In this document: positions 1 to 27,746 of the stretch, one piece after another
Numbering within the stretch: position 1 is the stretch's first letter
Layout: every line of letters begins with the position of its first letter
DNA from: Escherichia phage BSBP01
Reading direction: 5' to 3' (one strand)
Sequence record: PQ231202.1
Length of the DNA: 54,030 nt
The notes under the pieces: generated by a model
The model's database searches: none
Told to the model about the DNA's origin: nothing
The model's input: only the letters and a program-made list of their open reading frames with translations
Translations under genes and position numbers: made by a program

Positions 1-127
1 TCGGGATGAGGAGTAACCCAAATAAAAGCCTGAACTTTCTTTCTGCACAACACAATCAGCGCAACTAAGCCGTATCGCTACGGTATGCCAGACGCTCTCT
101 TGAGCCTTTTGAACAGAGGCATAACTG
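1..127. repeat. Exact 127-bp direct repeat of 53904-54030 (terminal redundancy or circular-assembly overlap)
   Basis: First 127 nt are identical to the last 127 nt of the window. Confidence 0.9.
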
Positions 128-749
128 TTGGAGGTAAATTGGCGGATTCGGTGAACTCCACGTTCACAATTACACAGTCGGCCTCGGATGCTTCATCCCT
201 ACCCCATCGTGCAGGTTTAATTAACTCTACGAATCCATTGAATTTGGTGACCGATACGTTGGTCAGACGCTGTGGCCTTTACGCGGCCAACGTGCCATTA
301 ATGCTGGCAAGACAGAGCTAACGTTCTCAAGCACTTTGGCGAGGATGTTCTCGGACACTGTTTTAGGAAGTGACCACCTGAACGTCTCGTGTTCATTACG
401 TTGACTTTACGGAGTCATCGGAGCTTCGTTCTCAAGCACGCCGTTTTCTTCTTTGGCCGGAGTCAAGCCGCAAGCCTTTGTCTCGGTGGACTAACCTTCT
501 CACACTAACGATGTGTAGCGGGACGTTCCAATCCTAGGAAGCAGCAATTTTAATTGCTATGCCCAGAGCAATTTGCAGGTTTGTTTGAGTTGGAGTCCTG
601 CTTCCAAACGCATGGGCTTACACCATCATCACAACAAGTTGCTAGAGTCTCGTTATTTAAAGTCGCGCACTCCCTCGACTATGATATACGTGTATTTAAA
701 GTCCCGTACCGGACTGCCAAATGAAATGCGATGGCGAGCATTTGTTCAC

Positions 750-959
750 TCACTGTCGGGTAAGTTTGGAACACTTTTGTGCCCACGTTTCATTGTGGAC
801 TAAAATCTGTGTTTTGGTTTCGCGTGACAAAACTTTCACTTCTGCAACATCCAAATAGATTGGTTGTGCAATTAAGCAATAATCACTTACGAACCCACTT
901 TGAGAGCAACTCACTATCGACATTGCTATCAGAACTGCTAGACACTTCTTTCTGAACAT
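750..959 (-). CDS. Putative o-spanin (outer-membrane lipoprotein), overlapped with the i-spanin in another frame
   Basis: ATG at 959 inside ORF 750..1076; N-terminus MFRKKCLAVLIAMSIVSC has a lipobox (IVS-C); short Cys-containing mature part. Confidence 0.45.
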   Translation of the reverse strand: MFRKKCLAVLIAMSIVSCSQSGFVSDYCLIAQPIYLDVAEVKVLSRETKTQILVHNETWAQKCSKLTRQ

Positions 960-1119
960 GCGTTTTAATCTCGATAGATTCTTTAATGGAATCGAATTGC
1001 TTCTCTGTGGCTTCCTGACGCTCCTCGGCTTTGCCTGAGCTTTTGCCTTTGAGGAACACTGCAATAATAATACCAAATGCAGTCAGGACGCCAAGAACTA
1101 TTGATTTAAGCTGTTGCAT
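883..1119 (-). CDS. Putative i-spanin-like type II membrane protein
   Basis: ATG start with AAGGTGA Shine-Dalgarno upstream; single N-terminal TM segment then charged periplasmic domain; o-spanin start embedded in it. Confidence 0.4.
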   Translation of the reverse strand: MQQLKSIVLGVLTAFGIIIAVFLKGKSSGKAEERQEATEKQFDSIKESIEIKTHVQKEVSSSSDSNVDSELLSKWVRK

Positions 1120-1831
1120 AAATCACCTTAGATGGCGCACGCACCACTTGAGCAGTCGTTGTCGCCAGCACCAGGAACGATTGCTTCTTCGTCCTGCTTT
1201 TTCTTGAGTTCTTCAATTGCTTCTTCGGCAGCACCGAAGTCTAAATTATCAAGTGCATCAAAATCCATGAGGACTCCAGTGTTGCGGGTTATTAAAAATA
1301 GCCCAGAGCCGTTATGCAGATATTAACAATTGTCTGCGAACGGGCTGGGCTTGGTAAGGTGGGGGGGTTTTGATAACGCAGGTTTTCCCGAACTGCGAGG
1401 CTTGTAGCAAGACAGCCGCATTACTTTGCGAATGCCAGCAGGATTGATAGTCCGACCGTCTTTGCTTAGGCAACCTGATTTAATCTACCTTTGTAGATAC
1501 CATCGGTTAGAGCAGTTTATTTCCATGCTAAGGGCAACTCACTTTAAATGAATTAAGTTTGTACTCTGTCACACTGCATCGCCCAGGTGTGCAGCCTAAG
1601 GTTGTCGGTTCATCGCAGAATACAAATTAATTATTGCTCCGATTTATTAATCACATCTCGAAGCCACAATGCGCCAAATTTGGTTACGTGGGATTGGAAG
1701 ACCACGGAGAGGACTTAAATTTAATTAAGCCGCAACTCGCATTTCAGAATCATTTGCACTTGTGTTTAAATGAATAAAACAGTCGCAATAACTCCAGGCA
1801 GTTTAGGCCCGTCGTAAGACTCAGAAAACTA

Positions 1832-1890
1832 CTTCAATAACACCACTCGTAAGTAATGTTATTGAAGCCCACTCTTCCTTTCAGAGTGGG
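1832..1890 (-). terminator. Two tandem perfect hairpins (10-bp and 8-bp stems) followed by a U-rich tract on the minus strand
   Basis: cttcaataac..gttattgaag and cccactct..agagtggg inverted repeats, about 77 nt downstream of the stop of gene 1967..2305. Confidence 0.3.
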
Positions 1891-1966
1891 TTCAAGGCAG
1901 CACCGGAAAACTTCCAGTGCATGCCAGATCGATTTAGCCTAGTCTCTCAAGTTTGCCATCGGCAAC

Positions 1967-2305
1967 TTAGAATACCGGAGCTTCTTCAACAGCAGCTTCA
2001 GCAGCTTCTGCAACACTTGCGTCAGCAACTTTAGCTTCTTTCGGAGTATCGAACTTAGTACGCTCAACTTCCGGCTCACCAGATTCAACCCACGGCAGGT
2101 AGAATGCCAGGAACTGCTCGATGGTGTTCTTCTGCATGGAGCGAGAACGGTCGATAGCGCCAACGGTGTTCAGGTACGCTTCGGCAGCTTTCTCAATTTT
2201 AGCACCGTTTTCCAGTTTGAAGTCATGTGCATTACACTCTGCTTCGGTCAGGAACAGGGAACCATCGTTAGCTTCGTACTGAGTTACGGTTACAATCTTA
2301 GCCAT
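1967..2305 (-). CDS. Hypothetical protein with acidic Ala/Glu-rich C-terminus ending in Phe
   Basis: 112-aa ORF; C-terminus AEAAEAAVEEAPVF. Confidence 0.55.
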   Translation of the reverse strand: MAKIVTVTQYEANDGSLFLTEAECNAHDFKLENGAKIEKAAEAYLNTVGAIDRSRSMQKNTIEQFLAFYLPWVESGEPEVERTKFDTPKEAKVADASVAEAAEAAVEEAPVF

Positions 2306-2380
2306 TTGTATATACCTTATATTGAATAGTTTTGCACGCCACGGTGACGTGACTTAGATAAAATTAAAGAGCCTTTCTCT

Positions 2381-2406
2381 TTCCACATCCAACTAATGTT
2401 TCAGAA
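2381..2406 (-). promoter_or_regulatory. Copy 1 of conserved intergenic motif (plus-strand TTCAnnTCCAACTAATGT), candidate phage RNAP promoter
   Basis: Near-identical about 20-bp element recurs 7 times, always intergenic and in the same orientation upstream of minus-strand genes. Confidence 0.3.
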
Positions 2407-2428
2407 CTGCTCTGATTCGTCAAACGAC

Positions 2429-3103
2429 TCAATATCTATTGAATCGTTCTAGTGTTTTATTTACTAAATCCTTTGTCTCATCGACAGTGAGTTCAGTGAT
2501 GATTGATTCGTCATAACCCTCAATCTGGATTGCTACAAAACGCCCAACTCCAGTCACAGTGAGTCGGTTTGTTCTGTCACGAACAACTACACCAGCTTCT
2601 TGCGCGACTGCTCGCAACAATTTCCAGCGTAAAGTTCGATTTGGCACAGCAAAGCCCTTTGCCGAGAACAACTCTTTCATGAGTTCTCCAAGACAAACAG
2701 CTTCAATGTTTTGTCCTCTTCCAACTAATTCTTGCAACAGGCACAGTGTCAACATTTCTAAATTGTTGAAGTGTCCAGCGCGCTCCAAATTAAAGAACTC
2801 TGGAGGAACAGTTGAACGAGATTTAACAGCTTGCTTATATGCACGTTCTTCTTCCTGTGCAGCAAGCATTAGCATCTCTGGCTTGATGTATTTCATAGCA
2901 GAGAAGCCAGCGCGTGTGGCTTTAATTATGCGACAAGCCTCTTTCATCTTGTAGCGTTGCCACTCACCGCGCTTCGATTCTGGATTAAAATGGACCCACA
3001 TAATGATAACATCTTCCTTGGCAAGATAGACGGCATCATTATCATTGAGCCATTGCTTACACGTTGATAGTGCAATCTCTTTGTCATCATCATGATAAGA
3101 CAT
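2429..3103 (-). CDS. Hypothetical protein
   Basis: Long ORF; start placed at internal ATG (MSYHDDD) 2 nt past the stop of the upstream gene. Confidence 0.55.
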   Translation of the reverse strand: MSYHDDDKEIALSTCKQWLNDNDAVYLAKEDVIIMWVHFNPESKRGEWQRYKMKEACRIIKATRAGFSAMKYIKPEMLMLAAQEEERAYKQAVKSRSTVPPEFFNLERAGHFNNLEMLTLCLLQELVGRGQNIEAVCLGELMKELFSAKGFAVPNRTLRWKLLRAVAQEAGVVVRDRTNRLTVTGVGRFVAIQIEGYDESIITELTVDETKDLVNKTLERFNRY

Positions 3104-3104
3104 T

Positions 3105-3431
3105 TTAGTGGCCTTGTAGGATACGTTTGTTCGCAGTTTCTGCGTCGATTCCCAAATCAACTAATGTCACCAAGCACTGCGAAATCCGCTCTTGCGCAGC
3201 TTTCTCCAGAATTTGGTATTTTTCGTTGTCAACGCCTAACACATTCTTGGCATGAATGAGTGTAGCCATTAGACCATGACCCAAAGCAACAGCTTGCATT
3301 GCCTGGAGTTCAAAGTTAATTGTGATGCCAGCGAGTTCGTGCTCTTTCTGGATAATCTCAATCAACTCTTCTTTAGATTTGTCTTGTAAGTTCAAAATGG
3401 AACTCCGTAAACTGGTTGGTTTGTTGTCCAT
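3105..3431 (-). CDS. Hypothetical protein
   Basis: 108-aa ORF in the co-directional gene array. Confidence 0.5.
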   Translation of the reverse strand: MDNKPTSLRSSILNLQDKSKEELIEIIQKEHELAGITINFELQAMQAVALGHGLMATLIHAKNVLGVDNEKYQILEKAAQERISQCLVTLVDLGIDAETANKRILQGH

Positions 3432-3712
3432 TCGCGGGTTGCGATTTGCATGGACTTGTTTGGGCCGCAGTAGAAATATTTCTTAACTTCTGCAAGGGTG
3501 TATTTAGCACTACATTCGAGTATATCTTTGAAAGTGTGCTTCCAGAACCCGTCCTTCTCAGAAATTCTTACGGTGAAGTTGTTGGTCCCGTTGTAATACC
3601 AACGCCCACCAACGAGAACGAAGTGGATTGTTTCTTCCTCCTCTTCCCCACTTGGCGAAGACATTAGCACATTTCTTAACGTCAAAACTTTAGCAGAATG
3701 CTTACGAACCAT
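3392..3712 (-). CDS. Hypothetical protein
   Basis: ORF 3392..3736 with start moved to the internal Met to limit overlap. Confidence 0.45.
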   Translation of the reverse strand: MVRKHSAKVLTLRNVLMSSPSGEEEEETIHFVLVGGRWYYNGTNNFTVRISEKDGFWKHTFKDILECSAKYTLAEVKKYFYCGPNKSMQIATREWTTNQPVYGVPF

Positions 3713-3911
3713 TTTGCAACTCCTTAATTTTGGCAATTAAGTCGCGCATGATTTTAGGGCCAATAGCCAAGTCACCAGTCATATCATAAAGGTCACTGCC
3801 TATTGCTTTTGCATTATTCTCCCAACCCTCAATAAGTTCTAACAATTCTTCAATTGTGTAGCCCTTAAACTGAAAGTTTTCGTTATTAATTACGCCGTAT
3901 TTTTGAACCAT
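3702..3911 (-). CDS. Hypothetical protein
   Basis: 69-aa ORF. Confidence 0.45.
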   Translation of the reverse strand: MVQKYGVINNENFQFKGYTIEELLELIEGWENNAKAIGSDLYDMTGDLAIGPKIMRDLIAKIKELQNGS

Positions 3912-4460
3912 AGGAACTCTCCAATTTTCGATTCAGTGTTTGTGACTTCTCTTCTCATCTTTTGGCCCATGAAACAGGCCACAGAGTTGCGAAAATAGCC
4001 CTGTTTTAGGGCCATAGTCCAACCGTTTGTGTCAATTCTGGATAACTGCATTGGCGAAGGGTTACTCCCGTTAGGGTGCGGCCTACGCATCATATCTGCA
4101 TAGCAGCCTGGCAAGCTGCGGAGGCCACAGAGGCTTTGCAACCCTTCCCAATACATTCACCCAATCCACCTGCTTTGGCATAGCTGGTGGCGCGGTTTTG
4201 TGCGGATTATGCCACTCTAAGCCCTGTTTGTCCGACTTCCTCAGAGCACCAGCAGCTTGTGGCACAAACCTATTTTCGAATGACTAACATAAGCATGAGG
4301 CACAACCCTCTAATTATTCAGCCCTAACAGCTTGCTTATTTAGTTCCAATTCATCCCAATACATCGCCTATAACAAGTGAATAGCTTTTCTGCGAAGAAG
4401 TATTCCGGCCCTTTGGCCTATGTTAAAAAGATAAATGTATATGATGGAAACATTCCATCT

Positions 4461-4550
4461 TGAAGTTCCCTCGCGCAATCGGAAGGACTCGAACCTTTCA
4501 CTCCACCCTTGTGCACAGGGCTTCTACCCAGACGATATGGAAGGAACTTC
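4461..4550 (-). ncRNA. tRNA-like structured element (non-canonical; possibly degenerate tRNA)
   Basis: Minus strand carries a T-arm-like AAAGG-TTCGAGT-CCTTC, an anticodon-like hairpin GCCCT-GTGCACA-AGGGT and a closing stem GAAGTTC/GAACTTC, but spacing is not canonical. Confidence 0.2.
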
Positions 4551-4564
4551 AATGATGTTGTCTC

Positions 4565-4589
4565 TTCAATTCCAACTAATGTTTCAGAA
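4565..4589 (-). promoter_or_regulatory. Copy 2 of conserved promoter-like motif
   Basis: cttcaattccaactaatgtttcagaa. Confidence 0.3.
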
Positions 4590-4651
4590 TTATTCCAATA
4601 TTCCAAACAAAAAGAATAATAAGAATAAAATTAAATAAATGAAGAAAGTGC

Positions 4652-4681
4652 TTGACACCCATTTGGCGATAAGTGTATAAT
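4652..4681 (+). promoter_or_regulatory. Near-consensus sigma70-type promoter on the plus strand (TTGACA-N18-TGnTATAAT)
   Basis: TTGACA at 4652-4657 and TATAAT at 4676-4681 with TG at 4674-4675 and an AT-rich upstream tract; points opposite to all genes. Confidence 0.35.
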
Positions 4682-4706
4682 GCCTTTCTTCCCTAAGAGG
4701 TCAGAA

Positions 4707-4730
4707 TCAAATTCTACTAATGTTTCAGAA
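4707..4730 (-). promoter_or_regulatory. Copy 3 of conserved promoter-like motif (variant)
   Basis: tcaaattctactaatgtttcagaa. Confidence 0.25.
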
Positions 4731-4791
4731 TTAAGCCGAAGGCCAATGCGAGTACAAAACCCGCTTGGCACTTCGACGGAACAGCCTGGAA

Positions 4792-5028
4792 CTACACTGC
4801 CTTCCAATCTGAATCAAACAGTTCCTTCGGTCTTGTATAAATTATCGAATTAATTCCCAAGAAAGTATGATTTCCATACTTCTTAACTTCCTGGTAAGCA
4901 AACCCATCTACCCAATTGCCGCAGTGGGTTTTAATCTTTGTAGCAAACAGAATTCGATAGTAGTGACCACGAGGCTGGTGGAAGAGAATATCTTCTGGCT
5001 TGATTGAGTTGATATTTAAATCAGACAT
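4792..5028 (-). CDS. Hypothetical protein
   Basis: 78-aa ORF overlapping the next gene by a few nt. Confidence 0.45.
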   Translation of the reverse strand: MSDLNINSIKPEDILFHQPRGHYYRILFATKIKTHCGNWVDGFAYQEVKKYGNHTFLGINSIIYTRPKELFDSDWKAV

Positions 5029-5563
5029 TTAGGAATAATACTCCTTCAGAGAAGATATAGTCGCTGCCGAAGTCTTTCACAATTGCTTCCCAATCAATAT
5101 ATGGTGCAAGGCGGTCTGGAATATCCAGTGCTTCACTTTGCTTGAAGTAGTCTGCAATTGAATCGCAACGAGTAATGAACATGTCGTTCAAATCATTCAC
5201 AGTGAAAATATCAATATCACCACTGCGGAATGCTGCAAGAATTACATCCAAATCGGTGTCAACAAGCAGCTCATTGAACTTATCATACTTGCGAATGCTG
5301 AACAGGCCATTGGCAAAGCAAACTTCTGTTACATCTGCTTCACTTGATTCAAGTATGTCATAAGTCCCATCTTCTGGGTATTCGATGCCGTATTCTTCAT
5401 GCAAATAATCCCGCATGTCGAAATCATAGTGACGCCAAGACAGGCCATCAATCCACGCATCTACAAATTCAGAATTAGTTTCGCCTGTGTAGAAACGAAC
5501 CAATAAGGTTTCATCTCTACGCCAGGACTTAAGATTTTCTATTGCTTGGATAATGGTGCTCAT
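5021..5563 (-). CDS. Acidic protein, possible ArdA-like antirestriction (DNA mimic) protein
   Basis: 180 aa, highly Asp/Glu-rich; C-terminal segment resembles the ArdA C-terminus by eye. Confidence 0.4.
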
Positions 5564-5838
5564 ATGCTCTCCATTGTGTCAGTTAATGCACTATGTATTT
5601 TACGAAGTTTTACTAATCTTTCCTCGCTATTTTTAATAAGCGTCCGCATAATAGCTTCTTTCTCATTGAAGCTAATTTTCATGGAAGTTTCTCCAACCTC
5701 CATATAAGCATTTAATCGAACTTCATCGCTTAGATTCAGCGCAGACATTTGATGCAATTCTTTCTTTGCCTTATCTATACGGGCATAGTGATGCTGAATC
5801 TCTGCTGGTATGTCTTGATAATTCATCGGATTCTCCAT
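5560..5838 (-). CDS. Hypothetical protein
   Basis: 92-aa ORF. Confidence 0.45.
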
Positions 5839-5846
5839 TGATGAAG

Positions 5847-6260
5847 TTATGCTGGAAGTTCGAAGTGCGGCATATCAATCAGCTTCTTCTTACCTGGTGC
5901 AAGTGGTGGATACGGCTGATTTTCATCAATACGGCTCCAGTTCCCACCCCAACGAATGGTAATTCCAAGCTCTTTTGCAGCTTTGAACATGTGATGAGCT
6001 AAAACTTTGAATCGTTCGAGGTCATTCCAGTCAATTGGATATGGTGCAATGTCCAAAGCGTTACCAGACATGTGTCGGCTTACTGAAACTTTGGTTGCAC
6101 CTTGTTTTAACAGTTCTTGTTGACGTTCATAAGAGCGTAAACCTTCCAAAACAGTCACATCAAAAGGCATGGTTTCACATGCCCGTTTGAAAACTGCAAC
6201 TAATGAAGGATTTACTCCCTTAAGTCGGTCTAAAGAACGTTGACCGAGCTTAACATTCAT
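5847..6260 (-). CDS. L-alanyl-D-glutamate peptidase (M15 family) endolysin-type enzyme
   Basis: [11 protein letters not shown] and DMPHFE zinc-ligand motifs typical of M15 peptidases such as the T5 endolysin. Confidence 0.75.
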
Positions 6261-6535
6261 TATTTGCCCTTTAACGCATCGTTTAAAGTGTTGTTTAACA
6301 GTGTGTTGAGGTTATCAAGTTCATCAAATGATGCCTGAGCCTTGGTAACTTCATCAACAAGTAATGCTCGAAGTACTGCGTGCTCAACAAGCACCCATCC
6401 GTCAATACAGTCGATGAAAACTTTAACTTTATCAACTGGAGCATTTAAATCAAAGGCCGACAAGTCAGATTTGGCATTATCTAGCTTACCTTTTGCCTTG
6501 CTTAGTTCAACTGGAACTTGGTCAATCGAAATCAT
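6260..6535 (-). CDS. Hypothetical protein
   Basis: 91-aa ORF, start adjacent to the stop of the upstream gene. Confidence 0.45.
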   Translation of the reverse strand: MISIDQVPVELSKAKGKLDNAKSDLSAFDLNAPVDKVKVFIDCIDGWVLVEHAVLRALLVDEVTKAQASFDELDNLNTLLNNTLNDALKGK

Positions 6536-6765
6536 TGAAAGCTATTCCCACTAGGGTGAATGGTTAATTTGAAGGATACTAACTCTTTATTGATTGAGGT
6601 TGTTCCAATAACTGTTGCCTCAAACAACATAGATTTAGAAGTTTCCTTCCCCACACGTTCCAAGTATTTTACAACTCGGTCGTGAATTACTGCCCACTGG
6701 CGATATTCGCAATCAGATTCCAGCAGGTATTGAACCCCATCAATGGTAAATTCGGTTGAAGTCAT
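6532..6765 (-). CDS. Hypothetical protein
   Basis: 77-aa ORF with 4-nt overlap coupling. Confidence 0.45.
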   Translation of the reverse strand: MTSTEFTIDGVQYLLESDCEYRQWAVIHDRVVKYLERVGKETSKSMLFEATVIGTTSINKELVSFKLTIHPSGNSFQ

Positions 6766-7121
6766 TTCTTCTCCGCACAGCTGGTGGATAAGATAGGGTA
6801 GTTTGCTTTGAGGAAGTCTCCGTCACGGAAAATCTGAAGTACAAGTTTGTCTTCATGATTTATAAACAGTGCAGCAAACCTGCTATCTTTAATGTTGTAA
6901 AACAAAACTGTTGCAGGATTGGGTTCATCACTTGGAACCTCTATCCAAACACCAGCTTCAGGAATTATTGACGCAATCAGAGGTTGGCTATCTCCAATAT
7001 TATCAATTACAAGAGCATATGCTCCACATTTGAAGTTCTTTGTTGACGCTTTAGACTCAAAGCTGAAGAACGCCAAAACAATTAATGCTAAGGTATAAAT
7101 AATGATGTATTTAAGTCTCAT
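6762..7121 (-). CDS. Putative secreted protein
   Basis: N-terminal signal-like hydrophobic segment MRLKYIIIYTLALIVLAFFSFESKA. Confidence 0.45.
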   Translation of the reverse strand: MRLKYIIIYTLALIVLAFFSFESKASTKNFKCGAYALVIDNIGDSQPLIASIIPEAGVWIEVPSDEPNPATVLFYNIKDSRFAALFINHEDKLVLQIFRDGDFLKANYPILSTSCAEKK

Positions 7122-7173
7122 AATTCCTCCAATAATTAATCGAGGCCACTCGAAGTGGAATGACCTCTGTTAA

Positions 7174-7878
7174 TTACAGCTTCTTGATAAGCTCTGCGGA
7201 TTTGCTTGCAGCAACTTTCATTTCATCGCGTGCGGCTTTAGAGATTGATGCCTTGTCCACGCGAATATTACAGTTACCAACTGCAATCTTGCCATCTTCT
7301 GTTGGCGGAAGCTGAGTTAACTCCAGCATTTGCTCTAGCTTTTGCAGAAGAATGCGTTGTGCTTCGATTGCATTTTGAATATTTAATGTTTCCATTACTG
7401 CTCTCACCTTTCTTGAGAATGTTCCAGTTAGTGCCAGGCGTACTTGCAAACCTTTGACGCCAGCATAGTCCACATTCACTTTATTGGCTGGCGAATGTGG
7501 ATGTTTGTACACGTTTGTTACAGTTGCCCAATTGCCATTTACCCAAATAACATCGCCAACTTCCACATCTTTTCCGAGAACATCTTCTTCATCGGATATT
7601 TCCTGCTTCTTGAACTCCTCCACAGGAAGGAATACTGGATTTATTTGGTTAGGGAACTCAATTGTTGGGGTTTCCAAGGCTGGTGGTCTGTCAAGCAACT
7701 TGACTATACGACCAAGTTCAAAATTAAAGTACCCACCAGAATATTGCAGTTGAACTACATCACTAAATCGAAGTATATTTACAATTAAATATTCTCTGTT
7801 GTTATAGACTAATACATCACCAGTTTTAACCAGATTGGCTGGTATTTCGACAACCTTAGTTCCCATGATATTCCTCAC
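7174..7878 (-). CDS. Hypothetical protein
   Basis: 234-aa ORF. Confidence 0.55.
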   Translation of the reverse strand: MRNIMGTKVVEIPANLVKTGDVLVYNNREYLIVNILRFSDVVQLQYSGGYFNFELGRIVKLLDRPPALETPTIEFPNQINPVFLPVEEFKKQEISDEEDVLGKDVEVGDVIWVNGNWATVTNVYKHPHSPANKVNVDYAGVKGLQVRLALTGTFSRKVRAVMETLNIQNAIEAQRILLQKLEQMLELTQLPPTEDGKIAVGNCNIRVDKASISKAARDEMKVAASKSAELIKKL

Positions 7879-7987
7879 GCATTACTGCACAGTGTTTGCA
7901 AACCCAAATGGTTACATAATCGTTTTCGTGTGAAATTTCCCAATTATGTAGCCCTATAAAACATAAGATTTTCATAGGGCATCTCTA

Positions 7988-8365
7988 TTAGAACGGAATG
8001 TCGTCGTCGAAGTCTTTCGGCTCGTTCGGGTTGTAGTTGCTATTCTTCGTCTGTTGCTGAGCAGGTGCTTGCTGTTGTGCAGAAGGTTGCTGGCGTGGCT
8101 GTTGCTGTTGAGCGGCAGCTTGAGGTTGAGCTTTGGCTTTAGCTTTCTCTTCACGCTTACGCATCATTTCATCAACTTGTTCCTGAGTCATGATGGTGAG
8201 TTCCAATGAGGTAAATTCGGTGTTGCCAGCTTTCTTATTCCAGCCAGACACCCAATACCAGATACCTTCTACGTTAATGCGACCACGAACATCTGGATGA
8301 TTTTCAGCTTTCTTGAAGCTGTTGTTGCCCAGAATACCAGTGTTTAAATCGTTGAATTGTGCCAT
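7988..8365 (-). CDS. Small SSB-like protein ending in the host SSB tail motif DFDDDIPF
   Basis: N-terminal about 60-aa domain, Gln/Ala/Pro-rich linker, C-terminus DFDDDIPF matching the E. coli SSB tip as recalled. Confidence 0.55.
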   Translation of the reverse strand: MAQFNDLNTGILGNNSFKKAENHPDVRGRINVEGIWYWVSGWNKKAGNTEFTSLELTIMTQEQVDEMMRKREEKAKAKAQPQAAAQQQQPRQQPSAQQQAPAQQQTKNSNYNPNEPKDFDDDIPF

Positions 8366-8437
8366 GATTAATTTCTCTTTAAGTTAATTACAGTTTAAGT
8401 TTCAGTGACATTGCTAACCACGGAATAGCTTTGTCTC

Positions 8438-8458
8438 TCTTCAAATCCAACTAATGTT
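8438..8458 (-). promoter_or_regulatory. Copy 4 of conserved promoter-like motif
   Basis: cttcaaatccaactaatgtt, about 75 nt upstream of the SSB-like gene. Confidence 0.3.
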
Positions 8459-8499
8459 AGATTAATCATGGACACCTACAAGAGATGCCCATTGTTAAT

Positions 8500-8733
8500 T
8501 TAACGAGTCAGTTTGTCAAAGTACCACATATCTTTGGTAATCCACTCACCGCTTGGTGATTTAATGTAGCAACTACCATTGATTGTGTATTTGAACTCTG
8601 CTTGCTGCAATTCTGCAAAGGTTTTGCATTCATATTTGTAAACAAAGTATGTAGGCAGTCCAATGACAACCAGAACGGACAGCAACATTAGTACGAAAGG
8701 CACTACAATATCTTTCATAACCCAATTCATCAT
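8500..8733 (-). CDS. Small membrane protein
   Basis: N-terminal TM segment VVPFVLMLLSVLVVIGL. Confidence 0.4.
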   Translation of the reverse strand: MMNWVMKDIVVPFVLMLLSVLVVIGLPTYFVYKYECKTFAELQQAEFKYTINGSCYIKSPSGEWITKDMWYFDKLTR

Positions 8734-8832
8734 ATCCCCGCTTGTAGAAGGAGTAGGTTTGCAAAACCCAGAATAACTGTAAGTATAACGACACTGATAG
8801 TGAGTGTCAGTATTATATATTTGATACTGCCC

Positions 8833-9120
8833 TCACATTACCTTTGATACAGGAATTGGGTCGATTGTGGTTTCAGGTTTATACCAACTTACTTCGCCAG
8901 AATCTTTAACAAGCTCCCACAAATTGGAGAATGTACGATAAGATAAATTGCGGTTATCATCATTAACGACAAAACCCAAAGGAGATTGAATATACGCACC
9001 GAGTGTACCGTTGTTGCGAGGAACCCCGTCACCACGACCTGCGACGATTTTGTATTCTTTACCGTTGGTAAAGTTGTAATTTGTTTTACCAACATAACGC
9101 AAAATTGAATTCTTGTTCAT
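8833..9120 (-). CDS. Hypothetical protein
   Basis: 95-aa ORF. Confidence 0.45.
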   Translation of the reverse strand: MNKNSILRYVGKTNYNFTNGKEYKIVAGRGDGVPRNNGTLGAYIQSPLGFVVNDDNRNLSYRTFSNLWELVKDSGEVSWYKPETTIDPIPVSKVM

Positions 9121-9437
9121 TTCTTAACTTTCTCCCATTTAGATAGGCCACCTTCGAGGTTGAAGATGCGGTTACAACCAGACTCATCTTTAATGACAAA
9201 TTGAGTTCCGGTCAATTGAATTGGCTCAAGTGCACCAAACAGCACTTTAGGTTTTGATAGGCTGGTGGCAAGAACAACATAAACTTTGCTTGGGCAAATA
9301 TCAAAAGCAAAGTCACGAGTGTAAACCAAATCACCAACTTTCAAATATGCTGGCAACATGCGACCTGTGGCTGGGTCACGCTGTAAACGAGTACGCTGTT
9401 TCATAAATGCTCCAAGTTGATTAATAATATTCAGCAA
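9117..9437 (-). CDS. Hypothetical protein
   Basis: 106-aa ORF. Confidence 0.45.
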   Translation of the reverse strand: MLNIINQLGAFMKQRTRLQRDPATGRMLPAYLKVGDLVYTRDFAFDICPSKVYVVLATSLSKPKVLFGALEPIQLTGTQFVIKDESGCNRIFNLEGGLSKWEKVKK

Positions 9438-9466
9438 CCACTCTCGCTACAAAGTGGTTGAGGAAA

Positions 9467-9697
9467 TTATTTGACTTCTTCCCAAGACCAGATTCCACCC
9501 TCCAAAGGAACACTTTCTCCTTCTTCAAAGTACGAATAACCATTGGCGTCTTTACGGTCGCTGTCTTTTGAAATACTTATGCGAGGCTCGATTCCATAAC
9601 CTCGCTTCACATGCATAACCCTTCCCTCAATCACATCACCAACCTTTGGTGAGTTTGCTCCATAAGAGGTTGATTTTACACATTTAAACTTTGTCAT
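9467..9697 (-). CDS. Hypothetical protein, paralogue of 9694..9921
   Basis: Shares N-terminal KFKCV-ST and a W-W motif with the adjacent ORF. Confidence 0.45.
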   Translation of the reverse strand: MTKFKCVKSTSYGANSPKVGDVIEGRVMHVKRGYGIEPRISISKDSDRKDANGYSYFEEGESVPLEGGIWSWEEVK

Positions 9698-9921
9698 TGT
9701 AATGCGCCTTGTTCACAAATGTCTGCAAATTCTGCACGATGGTCACGCTGCCATGTCCAGAATGCACCATTCATAGGAACGACAGCACCTTTACGGAATG
9801 CTGGAGAAATGCTTTCAGCAGATTTGGTTACTTTAAATTCCAAAGGCGAAATAGCTTCACCTTCAATGATTAAGCCAACTGGAACGTAGTCTTTGGTTGA
9901 AGCAACACATTTAAATTTCAT
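9694..9921 (-). CDS. Hypothetical protein, paralogue of 9467..9697
   Basis: Tandem duplicate, see above. Confidence 0.45.
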   Translation of the reverse strand: MKFKCVASTKDYVPVGLIIEGEAISPLEFKVTKSAESISPAFRKGAVVPMNGAFWTWQRDHRAEFADICEQGALQ

Positions 9922-9923
9922 GA

Positions 9924-10127
9924 TTAACCTTTTGGTGGAATATTTCCACTATTGTCTATTAACTTTCCACGATAAATATTAAACCCACAAGCAACACAGA
10001 ATGCATTATCCAAAACTACAGGACCATACATTCCAACTGCTTCATGTGCAACATGGTCTACATCAATGCTATTGCAGCGAGGACATATTACTACATCCTC
10101 TTCGTCAAAGTTCATGATATAAAACAC
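9924..10127 (-). CDS. Small zinc-ribbon protein
   Basis: CPRC...CVAC cysteine pairs. Confidence 0.45.
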   Translation of the reverse strand: MFYIMNFDEEDVVICPRCNSIDVDHVAHEAVGMYGPVVLDNAFCVACGFNIYRGKLIDNSGNIPPKG

Positions 10128-10410
10128 CTAATTCTGATTCAAGTTTAAATTCACGAAAGAAATCCAATGTTACAAATCGGATTTTACCTTCATCATCAAC
10201 TACGTTACAAGACATTTCGGAATGGACCATACGGCCCATCTTCAAGGCGACTTCTGAAAGGTTTGCTTCACCAGTTCCAGATATAACACGGTAAATCTTA
10301 TACGGCTCGAAACCTGCCAAAGAGTTATTACGGCGTGGTACGAGCATCATGCCAGTTTTAGTAGCCATAATAACTCCGATATTAAAAGTACATGAATGCT
10401 CCAACAACAA
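10105..10410 (-). CDS. Hypothetical protein
   Basis: 101-aa ORF. Confidence 0.45.
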   Translation of the reverse strand: MLLEHSCTFNIGVIMATKTGMMLVPRRNNSLAGFEPYKIYRVISGTGEANLSEVALKMGRMVHSEMSCNVVDDEGKIRFVTLDFFREFKLESELGVLYHEL

Positions 10411-10465
10411 GGAACACGAGTGGGAACATCAGAATACAGAATACAAGTTTCTTTACAATATCCAT

Positions 10466-10684
10466 TTATTTCACCAGGAAGTAGAGAACAATCAGGAATC
10501 CAACACATGCAATAATGGTTGGCATATACTTATCACGAGCACGAGGAACATATTGTTGCTGTTTAGTCTTGCCTTCCAAATGATTCATTAATTCAGTATG
10601 ATTCATTTGTTGCAGAAATGTGTTGAATTGCTGGTCGTTCATTATTTGTTCCTTAGCTTTACATTCTTCCCAACAAGTACACAA
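10466..10684 (-). CDS. Small tail-anchored membrane protein
   Basis: C-terminal TM segment IIACVGFLIVLYFLV. Confidence 0.35.
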   Translation of the reverse strand: MCTCWEECKAKEQIMNDQQFNTFLQQMNHTELMNHLEGKTKQQQYVPRARDKYMPTIIACVGFLIVLYFLVK

Positions 10685-10981
10685 TCTTTAAGCCATCGTG
10701 TTTTTAGATTTGCTGGGAACCAGGATTTAAATTCTTCGGAGTAAACCCTTGTGAAATGGAATTCGGGTGTGGTTAGTATGAGCATCCCACCACCAGTTCT
10801 TAGTAGCAGATTCTCGTAACTCACTTAATACTCCAATTCCCAAATACCAGGTTAACTATTTTAGCCACTTTACGTGCTGGCATACGAGGATTTGCAGCTC
10901 TCGCTAATTTCTTAGCCTTACGCTTTGAAGCACCGTACATAGCCATGTAGGTAACCGTTTTGGTCATATATTTGAGCTTCT

Positions 10982-11164
10982 TCATTTTCCACTCCGAGCA
11001 GCATCAAGCTGTTCTTCAAGAAGATTGATGTGTTGGCCTAAGAACAAGGCCATTTCACGAGAAATTACAACAGATTCGATTTTCGGATTTTCTGCCACTT
11101 GCTTAACACCTTGCAGGAAACTCCAAAGACTCACTTCTTCATTTTCGAACATGGTTAACCTCAA
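10982..11164 (-). CDS. Hypothetical protein
   Basis: 60-aa ORF. Confidence 0.35.
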   Translation of the reverse strand: MRLTMFENEEVSLWSFLQGVKQVAENPKIESVVISREMALFLGQHINLLEEQLDAARSGK

Positions 11165-11394
11165 TAGAAGTTTGCTGCCAGATTTTCCAACACTTTGACA
11201 GTCAAAACATCATCGTTAAGTTGTTGGAAAGTGATATCAATCCCAACTTCATCTTTAATACGAACAACAAGCTCACTTAAAATAGTGTCAGCCCAACCAC
11301 AATAGTTGACAATAATTCTCTCTTGAAGGAATTCTACTTTCTCTTCGTAAGAGGCCAACTCGATTAAGTCAGCCTTTAATTTAAACTGTGTCAT
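11161..11394 (-). CDS. Hypothetical protein
   Basis: 77-aa ORF. Confidence 0.4.
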   Translation of the reverse strand: MTQFKLKADLIELASYEEKVEFLQERIIVNYCGWADTILSELVVRIKDEVGIDITFQQLNDDVLTVKVLENLAANFY

Positions 11395-11579
11395 CTTGCC
11401 TCCAGAATTTGATTTAATCCACTGAACACGATTTCTTCATGTTCGTCAGTTGTACATGCATTGATGTAATCAAAGTCATAACCAACAAACTTCTCCGCCC
11501 ACTCCTGTAAACGAAGTAAAGAATTGAAGTACAACCTTTGCTCTACACCATTTAATTTGAAGAAGACGATGAAGTCCAT
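11391..11579 (-). CDS. Hypothetical protein
   Basis: ORF 11391..11663 trimmed to the internal Met to avoid overlap. Confidence 0.35.
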   Translation of the reverse strand: MDFIVFFKLNGVEQRLYFNSLLRLQEWAEKFVGYDFDYINACTTDEHEEIVFSGLNQILEAR

Positions 11580-11581
11580 GA

Positions 11582-11824
11582 TTAGCCTCTTACTTTCAGG
11601 AAGTCTGGATGTGCGGCAGTTGCCACAACTTTGTGATGTTTGTCGTTCTGGATTGCTTGCCAAACATATTCAGGATATGCGGCATTCTTCCACACCAGTT
11701 TGTTTTCGTAAATTGATGTGCCACACATTAGGTCTGCCAACATTATTGCTCTGGTCCTAGTATTAACCAAAGCATGAGAAACAACGCCATCACGATTAAT
11801 GTATTGATAGAGTGCATAATTCAT
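11582..11824 (-). CDS. Hypothetical protein
   Basis: 80-aa ORF. Confidence 0.4.
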   Translation of the reverse strand: MNYALYQYINRDGVVSHALVNTRTRAIMLADLMCGTSIYENKLVWKNAAYPEYVWQAIQNDKHHKVVATAAHPDFLKVRG

Positions 11825-11826
11825 AA

Positions 11827-12033
11827 CTAAACTCCGTATCTCTTGTATTTGTCGCCTTTGGAGACTTCCAAATATTCCTCAAATGTGAAAGTCCTCTCCT
11901 TGCTGTTTAATCTTGCCAACGACAAGTCTGCAACAAATTCGGCATTAAAACCTTTGTTAGAGGTCTTTCTCATGTGTGCCCCACCTCGTGTAAAGAATGT
12001 TGCACCTTCTGGTAAATCTTCGAAATTAGTCAT
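11827..12033 (-). CDS. Hypothetical protein
   Basis: 68-aa ORF, first gene after the repeat-rich non-coding region. Confidence 0.4.
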   Translation of the reverse strand: MTNFEDLPEGATFFTRGGAHMRKTSNKGFNAEFVADLSLARLNSKERTFTFEEYLEVSKGDKYKRYGV

Positions 12034-12323
12034 TTTATTCTCCTAAGTTAAAAGAAAACTCCCTACAGAACGATTGTGGAGGTCTTGTCTTACCTCAGTC
12101 CACCTTAAAGTTGTAGGGAGTTATATAGTATTCCTGTGTGTGCCGCCATCAGGGACTTCCTAGTCTGGTGGGCGCGTCGCAATCCAGCAATATACCACAC
12201 GTTTTTCACAGGCTATATATGTGACACACAAAGTGTCTAAAAACTACAATGATTAGCTTGGAGACATAATCTCTCTAAAATCTGTCACACAATTTCAGCA
12301 GAATTTACAGAGATTTGGTCTTA

Positions 12324-12340
12324 TTCACATGCAACTAATG
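12324..12340 (-). promoter_or_regulatory. Copy 5 of conserved promoter-like motif (variant)
   Basis: ttcacatgcaactaatg. Confidence 0.25.
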
Positions 12341-13238
12341 ATAAATGGACATGCTTAATTGCAACTAACTCATCTGCCAAATAGACGAATTTTGTCACAA
12401 TTAAACATGCGTCATTAATTACAGGTTTACTCCCATCTTGGAATGTATTTGGCACATTAAGATTGGAGCAAGTAGGTACGGAAAACCGACCATGTACAGC
12501 ATAATAAAACAAATTAAATAAAGGGTTTTATCCCAATATTGTCACAATATTACATGCGATGATAAAGCCTTCGCTTGGCTGGAAGCCAGTATTCATGCGG
12601 GTTGCAAGAATATTGGGTCAATACTGATACAGCTATTACATGCGAAATTGGCACAAATACTGTTACAAAATTAACATGCCAGATTGGTAGACGATTGTAT
12701 CTTCGAGGTGATTAGTCCTCTAACAATTCTGCCACATTCCAACATGCCAATTTGTAGCAATATTTACATGCCATACTGCGACGCAATTGTCACAATATTT
12801 GTTGCTCAAAATCGGGGCGGCTTCTGCGTGTAAACGAGAGGCTTTGCTCCGACTCTTCTCTTCTTTCGAATTCTGATTGAAAGAAAGAAGCATGTCCAAA
12901 AGTTCCAGTCTTGTAAAAGTTATCTCCCGGCTTGTGGGTGGGCCTTGATAATAGGAGTAACAGGTTGTCCGCTATTTTGTGCACTGAGCTAGGATTGAAT
13001 CCAGATTGCACTTTACTAGGTGGCGAACCAAGATTGAAACTAATAGACATGCTATAGGTGAAGTACAAGTTTCGAAGTATATAATCCTACTCTTTGCCAT
13101 GGTTGCTGGAACTATGGGTAGCTAATCCAGGGAGTTCGACAATTGCCACATTGCCACAACACTTTGACTCAAGCTGTCATGCTGAATGTTTCTAGAATGA
13201 TTCAACATTACATGCGGAATATTTATCCGTATTCTTTT

Positions 13239-13258
13239 ACTTCACATCCAACTAATGT
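13239..13258 (-). promoter_or_regulatory. Copy 6 of conserved promoter-like motif
   Basis: cttcacatccaactaatgtc, just downstream of the RNAP gene. Confidence 0.3.
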
Positions 13259-13361
13259 CGAATATTGAAACAATATTACATGCAGCAATATTGCTTGAAT
13301 ATTGGGATTTAGTTGTTGATGCACAAGAATAGGGCCAGTGTTTCCACCAGCCCCGTTTCTC

Positions 13362-15302
13362 TTATTGACAGAAGTAGTAAGCGTGTTCGCTCATCAGAAG
13401 CTCTTCGGTTACGATGTTCTCATGATACATCTGAATGCCACCGAGTTGCTTAGACAGATTCTCGAATTGATTGTTGGTTACGAAGATTTCAACATATGCT
13501 GCACGAATAACTTCCATCATACGTGGAGCATCTGCCAAACAGCAACGGAAACAATCGTGGATTGAAGTGAAACCACGAAGACCAGCTTCTTTAGCTTTAA
13601 CAGCAACAGTACGAGCAACCAATGCGTCGATACCTTGAATATAGTTGACTACGAAAGTACGCTTGAATTCCTCTTTAGTAGGATTGGATTCACGAATGGT
13701 CCAAGGTTTCTCTTCCTGAATCTGGCCAAAGATAACACGAGTTTGAGAGTCAACACGAATGCTGAATGCATCACAGATTTCACGAGATGGGAAGCAAGGC
13801 TTCATTACAACCTGACCATCAGTGTGCTTATAGGTGATGTATTCCTTGTTAAGCTCAACACAACGTTGATATGCAGCATCAGCAGCTTTCTCAATGAACA
13901 TGTTAATCTTAGCACCCAATGCGTTATGGATTGCTTCCACACACAGTTCAGCAAATGCCTCAGCCTTCTCAACTGGAATCTGAAGAGATGCAGTCATGTA
14001 AGAGATAAAGTCAGAAGAACCAGTTAAAGCAGCTTTACCACCACCATACTGAATAGCCATGTATGGAGTTTTGATAAACTTACGACCAGCTTTCGGATTC
14101 AAGAACTCTTCCATGATTTCAACAGAAGGTTTCATTGAAGACTTATCCAGCAGCTTCAACAGTTCACGAAGACTCAACTGGTATGGGTCAGATGCTTTAG
14201 TCTCAGAATCAACCAGACCTGTTGCACGAGCCATTTCCATGTTACCAGCAATGAATGCCAGATACTGAGTACCAGAACATTTAGCATCTAAGCCAAAGCC
14301 TACACGAGAATCGCATTCACCTGTAGTCTCAAACTTGAACCAATCCAGAGCCAGACGAACATAAGTGAATGGCTTAGAAGGACGTTCAGCTTTAGGCATG
14401 TTCATCATGCGAGCAAGTGAACCAGCTGGATTCTGAGCAACATAAGTTAAACGTTTAGCAGAGCACCAGTCTCCACCAGAAATGTCTTCCAGCTCAGCCA
14501 TGAACATGTTGTATGCAATGGTAGTAGAACCATCTTCGTTAAACTTCTTAACGATGTTCTCAACATTGTGAGAATACAAGCAACGAGCAAAGTCAGAGGA
14601 TTGTGGGTTAGGACCAGCACATGCTACATGATACAGGCGACCACGGTTATCAGCAAAGTAGTCAGAATAGAGTGTATCCTGAGTCATCATTGCTACAGCA
14701 TTGTTCCAAACATGGAGTTCAGTCTGGATTGCTTCTGGCATCTGCAAGCCACCATAAGTACGTTGTTCAAGCATGGACTGGATGATGCGAACCATCTCAG
14801 TCTCCACATGGTACTCAGTATCTTGCAGGAATTCGATTGCAGCTTTCAGAGTTTTGGATGGCTTAACTTTGCCACCTTTAACGAAAGGCTTGCGACGAGA
14901 TTCAGATGTAACACGCTCAGTGAATGGCACTGCTGTGTCTTTGGTTGTAACCAGTTCAACCCATGTGTCAGTTTGTTGGAATGACTTGTCTTCGTTCATG
15001 GTGATGAAGCCGAAGTGCTTAGCCAGACCAATGAGGTTGATAGCTGGGTCAACATAGTGCATTGCTTTCAAATCGTTGTTGTAGCGATTGGCATCAGCAA
15101 TAGAAGCAGAAGCCAGCTCAACCATCGCAATGGCAGGAACAACATCATCACGTGTGAAAGACGTCATCATCTTGAATATGGCTAAGGCAGCAATAGCACA
15201 AGTCTGAGGCTGCATATAGTTCTGCTTCTCTTTGGCACGGTATACCAGAGCAGTGATAGCAGGAACAACAGATTTGATAGTTTGAGTGGTGATAGTAGTC
15301 AT
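13362..15302 (-). CDS. Single-subunit T7-like DNA-dependent RNA polymerase, N-terminally minimal (646 aa)
   Basis: Motif A LDAKCSGTQY, motif B RKFIKTPYMAIQYGGG, motif C TSIHDCF and a VNYIQGID segment align to T7 RNAP catalytic motifs. Confidence 0.8.
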   Translation of the reverse strand: MTTITTQTIKSVVPAITALVYRAKEKQNYMQPQTCAIAALAIFKMMTSFTRDDVVPAIAMVELASASIADANRYNNDLKAMHYVDPAINLIGLAKHFGFITMNEDKSFQQTDTWVELVTTKDTAVPFTERVTSESRRKPFVKGGKVKPSKTLKAAIEFLQDTEYHVETEMVRIIQSMLEQRTYGGLQMPEAIQTELHVWNNAVAMMTQDTLYSDYFADNRGRLYHVACAGPNPQSSDFARCLYSHNVENIVKKFNEDGSTTIAYNMFMAELEDISGGDWCSAKRLTYVAQNPAGSLARMMNMPKAERPSKPFTYVRLALDWFKFETTGECDSRVGFGLDAKCSGTQYLAFIAGNMEMARATGLVDSETKASDPYQLSLRELLKLLDKSSMKPSVEIMEEFLNPKAGRKFIKTPYMAIQYGGGKAALTGSSDFISYMTASLQIPVEKAEAFAELCVEAIHNALGAKINMFIEKAADAAYQRCVELNKEYITYKHTDGQVVMKPCFPSREICDAFSIRVDSQTRVIFGQIQEEKPWTIRESNPTKEEFKRTFVVNYIQGIDALVARTVAVKAKEAGLRGFTSIHDCFRCCLADAPRMMEVIRAAYVEIFVTNNQFENLSKQLGGIQMYHENIVTEELLMSEHAYYFCQ

Positions 15303-15368
15303 TTGTAAGTCTCCAAGATTGTGTATGATTTAACTGAAACGGATTATAATAGCGTAGCCATTACACAA

Positions 15369-15384
15369 TTCACTTCCAACTAAT
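15369..15384 (-). promoter_or_regulatory. Copy 7 of conserved promoter-like motif, about 70 nt upstream of the RNAP gene
   Basis: ttcacttccaactaat. Confidence 0.3.
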
Positions 15385-15550
15385 ATCACAAACCTGTGCC
15401 ATTGTTACAACAGCACGGAGACTTTGACCTTGACCCATAAGCGAAGCGCCTAACTTGGTGTTGTTTGAAAGCCGATAGGCTGTAGGAAAAAGTTGGAGTA
15501 GGGACCGTATTTAAGTCCGATAGGACGTTGGGCTTCCCCTCCCCGCTGGC

Positions 15551-15815
15551 CCAAAAATAAAATTATAATATTGCCACAATTCTAGTCTCGTTAATATCGT
15601 AACAATTCGAGTATCGTAGCTTTGTTACGAATTCTAGTCTCATTAATTCTGTAGCAATATTGAAAATAAAAAAAAAATTATAAAAAAAATTATTTAATAG
15701 TCGGTTTTCCATTCGAACAAATTTCGGCGAGATACAGTTGACCGACCATGTACCATTTGGTTTTAACTTTACGCATTCCTAATATTACTCTTAATATTGT
15801 AGCAATATTGGGAAT
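15551..15815. repeat. AT-rich non-coding region with direct and inverted repeats and poly-A runs
   Basis: aattctagtctc at 15578 and 15630; inverted repeat cgtaacaa/ttgttacg at 15598-15629; TGTAGCAATATT copies also seen in the 12.3-13.3 kb region. Confidence 0.45.
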
Positions 15816-15925
15816 AAATAAATATTTAATTTACTTGTCTTATTCTAGCTCAAAGAGAAACGACGCTAACGCATCGAATCTCTTCTCGCATATAACTGAC
15901 AAACGTCAGCCTTCACCGTATCCAA

Positions 15926-17026: not shown

Positions 17027-17580
17027 TACAGATTTCCTAGATACTCATAGAATTTATGGCCACCATAACGTCCCAAACCTTTAACATTCTTGAAGTTGCA
17101 CTTCTCCGATGCTGTACAAAAGTGGGTTGCTTTGGTGACAGAGGGTTGATTAAATAGTACAAAAGATATTGCAACATTAATAGTGTCCAGAACTTGTTGT
17201 TGTTCTGTGGCATAATTAATCTTTGCTACATGCTTCCATTGAGCATTCTTCTTCTTTGCTTCTCGTGTCCATGCAAATTGGTTGCGTTGATAGACAACAT
17301 CACAAACGGTGTTAGCGAATGGCTTCCCGAACTCAGTTCTATTACGGACGACATTAGCTACCAGAATCTTTCCATGTTTGTCTTCTCCGCGAGCTTCATA
17401 CCAGATAACTTTAGTGTAGCATTCTAGCTCTTTGCGTTGTGAAGAAGATAGTTTCAGACTTCCATTTAAATAAGAGTGACTTGCAAAATCTGTAATAGCA
17501 GAATTCACTGCCCCAACCGAAGCTGGGGCGTTGATGTGAACTAAAGCTGTCAGAAGTGCAAGGACTTTGAATGATAACAT
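17026..17580 (-). CDS. Secreted SleB/CwlJ-type cell-wall hydrolase, probable endolysin
   Basis: N-terminal signal-like segment; [17 protein letters not shown] motif of the Hydrolase_2 family; immediately downstream of the holin. Confidence 0.7.
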
Positions 17581-17597
17581 TCGAGTTCCTTACCATT

Positions 17598-19802: not shown

Positions 19803-19811
19803 TACATTACC

Positions 19812-23043: not shown

Positions 23044-23051
23044 TATTAACC

Positions 23052-27680: not shown

Positions 27681-27746
27681 CTATTGAAATTAATACACAT
27701 TCAAATAATGTTAAAGAGGTAACCGGGACGAATCCCGGCACCATTC

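Follow-up and report, generated by a model that had tools for sequence, protein, structure and literature searches.

A divergent ArdA-like protein encoded in the middle region of Escherichia phage BSBP01

The ardA-like gene and its genomic setting

The region under study in Escherichia phage BSBP01 (record PQ231202.1) contains, in the order of reading, an endolysin gene, a small reading frame termed orfX, the ardA-like gene and a second small reading frame, orfY, followed by a hairpin and by a conserved non-coding stretch (Table 1). A first-pass annotation had noticed here a strongly acidic protein of 180 aa, and this is indeed what the reading frame at 5021..5563 encodes: 39 aspartate and glutamate residues and 14 lysine and arginine residues result in a net charge of -25. 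Its strand, not stated at the time, is the minus strand. The isoelectric point is 3.82 by our own calculation; Biopython returns 4.05, the lowest value which its routine can give. In a comparison of 79 minus-strand ORFs, non-overlapping and 50 aa or longer, the protein has both the most negative charge per residue (-0.139, the next being -0.091) and the lowest pI (3.82, the next being 4.03); its acidity is therefore not an effect of chance composition. The ratio dN/dS, evaluated against three orthologs, is 0.09-0.20, and the reading frame is a real gene under purifying selection.

The gene overlaps orfX at its start and orfY at its end, which makes translational coupling of the three genes probable; the ardA/orfY overlap is retained in Faunus and 4HA13. 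No PHROG or PADLOC match was found for orfX, and an ORF of about 90 aa occupies its place in other genera too, while orfY matches PHROG 2652, of unknown function. The two ORFs of about 91 aa which flank the endolysin gene (5560..5838 and 6260..6535, both on the minus strand) show 22% identity over 60 aa in a BLASTP comparison (E 0.002) and are possibly diverged paralogs of unknown function.

The window, i.e. the whole stretch of 54,030 nt analysed, is a complete Carltongylesvirus genome (Chaseviridae, Cleopatravirinae, phiEcoM-GJ1-like), all the long genes of which lie on the minus strand. The phiEcoM-GJ1-like phages are myoviruses with a T7-like single-subunit RNA polymerase (phiEcoM-GJ1 record, ICTV profile). 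Over the gene region, BSBP01 shares 94% identity with Shigella phage vB_Shi_2KOFFS and 85-91% with many phiEcoM-GJ1-like phages. The first-pass annotation had put the ardA-like gene about 8 kb downstream of the RNA polymerase gene; measured from the polymerase stop codon, the distance to the start of the ORF is 7.8 kb. It is located about 10.4 kb from the conventional left end of BSBP01, and 7-11.5 kb from that end in the records with comparable coordinates, so that its position is conserved.

The first and the last 127 nt of the window (1..127 and 53904..54030) are identical, the signature of the overlap of an assembly circularised with k = 127, and the genome without this repeat measures 53,903 bp (1..53903). 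The true virion ends are absent from the record. Terminal repeats of Chaseviridae measure about 2.3-3 kb, and in the related phage PYps23T the ends are defined and carry terminal repeats of 2.3 kb.

Table 1. Features of the ardA-like locus of phage BSBP01, with coordinates in the window and the basis of each assignment
Feature	Position	Strand	Basis
ardA-like CDS, 180 aa + TGA stop; ortholog of phiEcoM-GJ1 gp22	5021..5563	-	ORF, ATG to TGA
Ribosome-binding site GGAGAG	5567..5572	-	3 nt upstream of ATG, read from sequence
orfX, 92 aa; stop overlaps ardA start (ATGA)	5560..5838	-	ORF
orfY, 78 aa, GJ1 gp23-like; start overlaps last 8 nt of ardA	4792..5028	-	ORF
Endolysin (Peptidase_M15_4), conserved upstream neighbour	5847..6260	-	domain match and synteny
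Single-subunit RNA polymerase gene	13362..15302	-	PF00940, E 1e-18
Putative phage-RNA-polymerase promoter, GJ1 'promoter 3' type, nearest upstream	8440..8459	-	TAACATTAGTTGGATTTGAA, 2-3 mismatches to GJ1 promoters
Next putative phage promoter, GJ1 'promoter 4' type, starting the following unit	4706..4725	-	GJ1 promoter match
Hairpin after orfY	4735..4776	-	stem-loop in fold of 4688-4800
Residues 1-13, predicted N-terminal helix	5525..5563	-	DSSP helix 2-13, pLDDT ~70
Residues 14-74, ArdA domain-1-like, approximate boundaries	5342..5524	-	E20-25, E33-38, H40-44, H50-58, E67-73
Residues 75-115, ArdA domain-2-like, helical, approximate boundaries	5219..5341	-	H76-82, H90-102, H105-114
Residues 116-180, ArdA domain-3-like	5024..5218	-	E129-132, H136-142, H150-155, H158-168, E169-172, E175-178
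Y155-I156-D157	5093..5101	-	aligned to Y137-I138-D139, Tn916 dimer interface 'anti-restriction motif'
L176-F177	5033..5038	-	aligned to essential I160-F161 'VF motif' of Tn916 ArdA

Orthologs, distribution and existing annotation

The gene family and its anti-restriction label are already known, near-identical genes of related phages having been so labelled since 2008. The ortholog gp22 of phiEcoM-GJ1 (YP_001595417) is annotated as 'anti-restriction protein', PHROG 14321, bearing the same name, matches end to end (E 1e-50), and the closest ortholog, 92.8% identical, is an annotated protein of Shigella phage vB_Shi_2KOFFS. Identity to the gp22 group is 79-93% within the genus and 32-37% in other genera; orthologs from Carltongylesvirus, Faunusvirus and Sabourvirus have the same length and occupy the same slot, between endolysin/orfX and orfY. 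The BSBP01 protein shows no difference of substance from this group, of which it represents another allele. No functional test of any chasevirus ArdA was found in literature searches.

By tblastn the gene was detected in 50 records, belonging to phages of Escherichia, Yersinia, Shigella, Erwinia and Aeromonas. The conserved non-coding region next to it likewise matches 50 records, with an identical organism breakdown, and the gene is present in 50/50 of them. The order endolysin-orfX-ardA-orfY is kept in all four genera whose locus was inspected, and its upstream part is also found on two metagenomic contigs; in the record of Aeromonas phage phiA050 the ardA-like gene is the only one annotated within the endolysin-orfY stretch. 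Judged from these comparisons, the gene is conserved in every detectable cleopatravirine chasevirus.

Sequence evidence for membership in the ArdA family

The C-terminal segment of the protein had been described, by eye, as resembling ArdA. This resemblance is borne out by Pfam PF07275, which aligns residues 104-171 to positions 88-147 of its 155-position profile, with a direct score (E 0.0078, 17.3 bits) below the 27-bit cut-off. The same cut-off is passed by two syntenic orthologs, 42% and 35% identical, which score 36.1 and 30.2 bits respectively, and further relatives score 32-36 bits against the same profile. All 13 members of the clade match Pfam ArdA. An exhaustive profile search yielded 154 relatives, and E values below 1e-3 against Pfam ArdA were obtained for 30 of 38 diverse relatives sampled.

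When the profile of this 38-sequence family was compared to the PDB, the top match was 2W82, the ArdA of Tn916 (E 1.4e-4). A profile match to ArdA, proposed at the first pass as a check of the assignment, was obtained with hhalign between the family profile and the enterobacterial plasmid ArdA WP_000129958.1, of the ColIb-P9/R64 type (97.6%, E 4e-12). The match spans residues 36-179, thus reaching into domain 1, and starts with A36-W37-I38-D39 facing AWLD of the plasmid protein, the AW(I/L)D segment of domain 1 being shared by the two. Pairwise similarity to the same protein is marginal in BLASTP (E 0.015). A profile built from relatives of Tn916 ArdA assigns 46 bits to the phage protein, a score not fully independent, as the set of relatives was drawn from matches of the phage profile.

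Narrower searches were less informative. A single-sequence phmmer search of the PDB returned only noise and missed ArdA; the profile of the close clade missed it too, and its weak match to PriL was rejected as spurious. The broader profile was needed to recover ArdA. By hhalign, the close clade aligned to the Tn916 sequence alone with 22% probability over 45 columns. The NCBIfam search gave no match and PADLOC no meaningful match for the ardA-like protein. Pfam matches to DUF6429, HTH_33 and DUF7698 were discarded, as they are short, far below the cut-offs and not common to the family. The results support the ardA-like ORF as encoding a divergent protein of the ArdA family, homologous along nearly all of its length.

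Predicted fold, domains and conserved motifs

An AlphaFold2 model of the protein was obtained with pLDDT 87.3 and pTM 0.78. In a Foldseek search of the PDB with this model, 2w82_B is the sole match with E <=0.001 (E 2e-4, 176 columns, TM 0.55/0.60); in a viral structure library, the top matches are 'antirestriction' proteins of 4HA13, Pantoea phage SSEM1 and Proteus phage Myduc. The order of the elements (three strands and short helices, a helical middle, three strands and three helices) is that of the published ArdA domains 1-2-3, and the protein is predicted to adopt the ArdA fold, with three small domains in a row.

Conservation varies along the chain. The predicted N-terminal helix is devoid of a Tn916 counterpart in the sequence alignment, residues 3-18 being opposite a gap in a MAFFT projection, and divergence is greatest in the N-terminal third, which Pfam ArdA does not detect. 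The domain-2-like region is covered by the Pfam and ArdA-profile matches of the orthologs. The domain-3-like region, corresponding to the dimerisation domain of Tn916 ArdA, is the best conserved part relative to both Pfam ArdA and 2W82.

Two motifs known to be essential in Tn916 ArdA have aligned counterparts in this last region. The first is the dimer-interface motif, in which Y137-I138 are essential (PMC2731889); its context is P-Y155-I156-D157-W in the phage protein and N-Y137-I138-D139-Y in Tn916 ArdA, and within the phage clade Y155 and D157 are invariant and I156 nearly so. The second is the VF motif, located in the central strand of domain 3, where F177 is the sole invariant column among the 38 diverse family members. 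Strong negative charge is also a constant of the family, the net charge of all members ranging from -15 to -35. Residues 116-140 are placed differently by hhalign and HMMER and their alignment to Tn916 is ambiguous; the count of retained acidic residues bridging the Tn916 interface is therefore ambiguous as well.

Tn916 ArdA (Orf18; 2W82, 7BTO, 7BTR), the only structural match above threshold in two structure searches, shares with the phage protein the predicted elongated three-domain fold, the YID and VF-type motifs, a pI of about 4 and a similar size. The two are about 19% identical; the phage protein differs by its additional N-terminal helix and by a longer loop preceding the first strand of domain 3. 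It is also less charged (-25 versus -32), with 14 basic residues instead of 6, and is carried by a lytic phage rather than by a conjugative element. The ArdA-like reading is thus upheld by the profile matches of the relatives, the predicted fold, the conserved motifs and the charge, and the existing annotation now stands on better evidence than that in the records, from profile-profile comparison, fold and motif conservation.

Transcription and timing

Matches to the promoters of phiEcoM-GJ1 (core ACATTAGTTGGA), which are themselves predictions of the GJ1 record, are found on the minus strand at 13241, 12324, 8440, 4706, 4565, 2714 and 2382. The unit containing the ardA-like gene would start at the site ending at 8459, from which the phage RNA polymerase would transcribe it, and would terminate at the hairpin which follows orfY. 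This hairpin is probably the end of the transcription unit, and the record of phage SA91KD has a rho-independent terminator annotated at the corresponding position. According to the ICTV profile chasevirus promoters are not yet identified, and the ardA transcription unit is therefore a prediction. Sense-strand sigma-70-like sites upstream of the gene are no more frequent than in shuffled sequence.

On this basis the protein would be made some minutes after infection, and not first, as is T7 Ocr. First expression from host-recognised promoters, the deployment of Ocr and of plasmid ArdA, was not found for the ardA-like gene. Nor does the leading part of the genome lack type I sites, a feature that could have accommodated late expression: its first 10 kb contain 5 EcoBI, 5 EcoAI and 5 EcoR124I sites. 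Given these sites and the mid-genome position of the gene behind phage promoters, protection of the entering DNA would come late. The genome is presumably injected whole by the contractile tail.

Restriction-site content of the genome

The content in restriction sites was evaluated on the unique part of the genome (1..53903). GATC is observed once, at 1927, against about 160 expected occurrences. CTGCAG is absent (23 expected) and AAGCTT occurs twice (32.5 expected); CTCGAG and GAGCTC, for which 5.3 and 5.2 sites are expected, are also absent. Palindromes recognised by type II enzymes are therefore avoided to an extreme degree. Type I sites (3 for EcoKI, 8 for EcoBI, 7 for EcoAI and 18 for EcoR124I) occur at about the expected frequency, with no significant avoidance. 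In the whole window CAGCAG, the EcoP15I site, is found 70 times on the plus strand (32-59 expected) and only 3 times in the opposite orientation (10-13 expected), the minority sites, read as CTGCTG on the plus strand, being at 5802, 14930 and 19426. In T7 a similar one-orientation bias of CAGCAG defeats type III enzymes, such as EcoP15I, which need inversely oriented sites.

The combination of type I sites which are not avoided with type II palindromes which are fits an active inhibition of type I enzymes. A possible evasion scheme would comprise palindrome avoidance against type II enzymes, CAGCAG in one orientation against EcoP15I-type enzymes and, for type I enzymes, whose targets are too varied to be avoided, an ArdA-like mimic; type II and III enzymes would be evaded passively and type I enzymes inhibited actively. 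Such a picture is useful for choosing therapeutic phages and their hosts.

Proposed function and alternative readings

The protein probably has the canonical ArdA function: it would be a DNA mimic blocking type I restriction-modification enzymes, as the first-pass annotation had suggested, and would be active as a dimer. Its dimerisation, target and activity are proposed here by analogy with characterised members of the family, and its timing from the position of the gene. By the family analogy (2W82; 7BTO/7BTR), two monomers would join head to head through the C-terminal domain to form a long curved rod, whose carboxylates would resemble the backbone phosphates along about 42 bp of bent B-DNA. 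The rod would fill the DNA-binding groove of the type I HsdM2-HsdS core, together with the adjacent HsdR contact, and the enzyme would thereby be unable to bind or cut unmodified phage DNA.

Activity of this type is documented for several relatives. The plasmid ArdA WP_000129958.1 blocks EcoKI in vivo, and served as the EcoKI-blocking control of Silas et al. (bioRxiv 10.1101/2023.04.06.535777). Plasmid ArdA acts on the type I systems of E. coli, a host range of target enzymes which the phage protein would share. The two differ in deployment: plasmid ardA belongs to the leading region and its expression upon entry is transient (PMC12707154), whereas the phage gene is found in mid-operon, behind phage-polymerase promoters. 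Single ArdA domains can also carry anti-restriction activity, as described for sArdN and sArdC (PMC12548430), which belong to the same superfamily but have one-third of the length of the full-length, three-domain phage protein.

An unlikely alternative is that the protein is a DNA mimic of the ArdA fold whose main target is other than a type I restriction enzyme, acting in mid-infection and not at DNA entry. Candidate targets would be a DNA-binding factor of the host, for instance H-NS, a type I-like or BREX-like defence system, or a modification methyltransferase acting on replicating DNA. The middle position of the gene behind phage-polymerase promoters, with predicted co-transcription with the SSB and endolysin genes, speaks in its favour, as does the presence of type I sites in the leading 10 kb, which makes early protection seem poorly timed. 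In addition, an effect on H-NS is reported for ArdA, Ocr and Arn, exerted by way of the N-domain in the case of ArdA (PMC12707154), E. coli gene expression can be altered by ArdA proteins (PMC13300388), and the N-terminal third is the portion most diverged and undetected by Pfam ArdA. Against it, each ArdA assayed in the studies consulted, whether plasmid, transposon, chromosomal or small, was active against one or more type I systems (PMC2731889, PMC12548430, PMC10149784), BREX and EcoPI are not inhibited by plasmid ArdA (PMC10149784), and the protein retains the two motifs on which the canonical structure depends, that of the dimer interface and the VF motif. A related proposal, to which a low probability is assigned, concerns deployment: a middle-class ArdA dependent on the phage polymerase would not act at DNA entry, unlike plasmid ArdA and T7 Ocr. 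Such a protein might shield newly replicated, unmethylated DNA, block host methylation, or be retargeted to a host factor or defence system.

It is very improbable that the product is an acidic protein unrelated to DNA mimicry. This reading derives from the names 'tail fiber protein' and 'replication inhibitor protein', given to orthologs in the records of MLP1, FXie-2024a, PYps3T/4T/16T/23T and Pel53. However, the gene is part of the early/middle region and distant from the structural genes, Pfam and PHROG searches retrieve no tail-fibre or replication family, and fold and profile evidence points to ArdA alone, so that the deviant labels look like errors of annotation transfer. The two labels, found in OK148439 (MLP1), PP107930, MW147598-MW147602 and PP952070 (Pel53), can be corrected accordingly. 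Pel53 is in addition listed with Staphylococcus hyicus as its host, despite a Carltongylesvirus-like genome; the mislabels and this host are probably errors of annotation or host assignment.

An Ocr-type mimic homologous to T7 gene 0.3, evoked by a similar charge density and pI and by the T7-like RNA polymerase of the phage, can practically be dismissed, being refuted at the homology level by the lack of sequence or fold similarity in any search. The gene had been noted as not lying at the extreme early end, unlike its counterpart in T7-type phages, and this holds. As a canonical ArdA, the protein would likely do the same job as Ocr, inhibition of type I enzymes by DNA mimicry, with comparable charge and also from a phage with a single-subunit RNA polymerase. 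Ocr is nonetheless not homologous; its gene is expressed before all others, while the DNA is entering, the protein mimics about 24 bp, and it blocks BREX, which plasmid ArdA does not.

A conserved sigma-70 consensus antisense to the ardA-like gene

A perfect sigma-70 consensus, TTGACA-N18-TATAAT (12/12), occupies plus-strand positions 4652..4681, in antisense orientation to all the genes, and is the sole match of at least 11/12 in the whole genome. Located 110 nt downstream of orfY, it points into orfY and ardA, and lies between the phage-promoter-like sites at 4706-4725 and 4565-4584 of the minus strand. Both hexamers and the 18-nt spacing are intact in GJ1, 2KOFFS, SA91KD, Erwinia phage Faunus, Sabourvirus 4HA13 and Aeromonas phage phiA050, while the spacer differs; the promoter is thus conserved across four chasevirus genera. 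Homologous positions are 9294 in phiEcoM-GJ1 and 3361, 1595, 2543(-), 2606(-) and 2462(-) in the other five records. In the distant genera the spacer contains an inverted repeat with compensatory changes (CAGAT..ATCTG, AGAAT..ATTCT, CACAT..ATGTG). No annotation of this promoter was found in the related phage records examined.

Just upstream of the -35 box an A+T-rich stretch contains conserved copies of TTATTCC (two) and GAATAA (two). The primary origin of T7 consists of twin phage promoters and an A+T-rich region. By resemblance to this arrangement, the region may be a replication origin or an operator. The antisense promoter could be the source of an antisense RNA or part of an origin-like region, and host-polymerase antisense transcription from it might control the ardA operon.

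The non-coding sequence at 4380-4800 matches 50 of 50 related phage records in blastn, including those of Erwinia and Aeromonas phages. Within its conserved portion at 4440..4560, on the minus strand, the sequence GGTTCGAGTCC, reverse complement of about 4487-4497, resembles a tRNA T-arm. ARAGORN detected no tRNA anywhere in the window, and Rfam gave no match in 3000-9000; in the phiEcoM-GJ1 record a tRNA-Arg is annotated elsewhere in the genome.

A further phage-promoter-like sequence, TGATATTAGTTGGAAGTGAA, is located at 15369..15388 on the minus strand, 67 nt upstream of the start codon of the RNA polymerase, and might let the phage polymerase transcribe its own gene. The site is identical in phiEcoM-GJ1 (19294), where it is unannotated.
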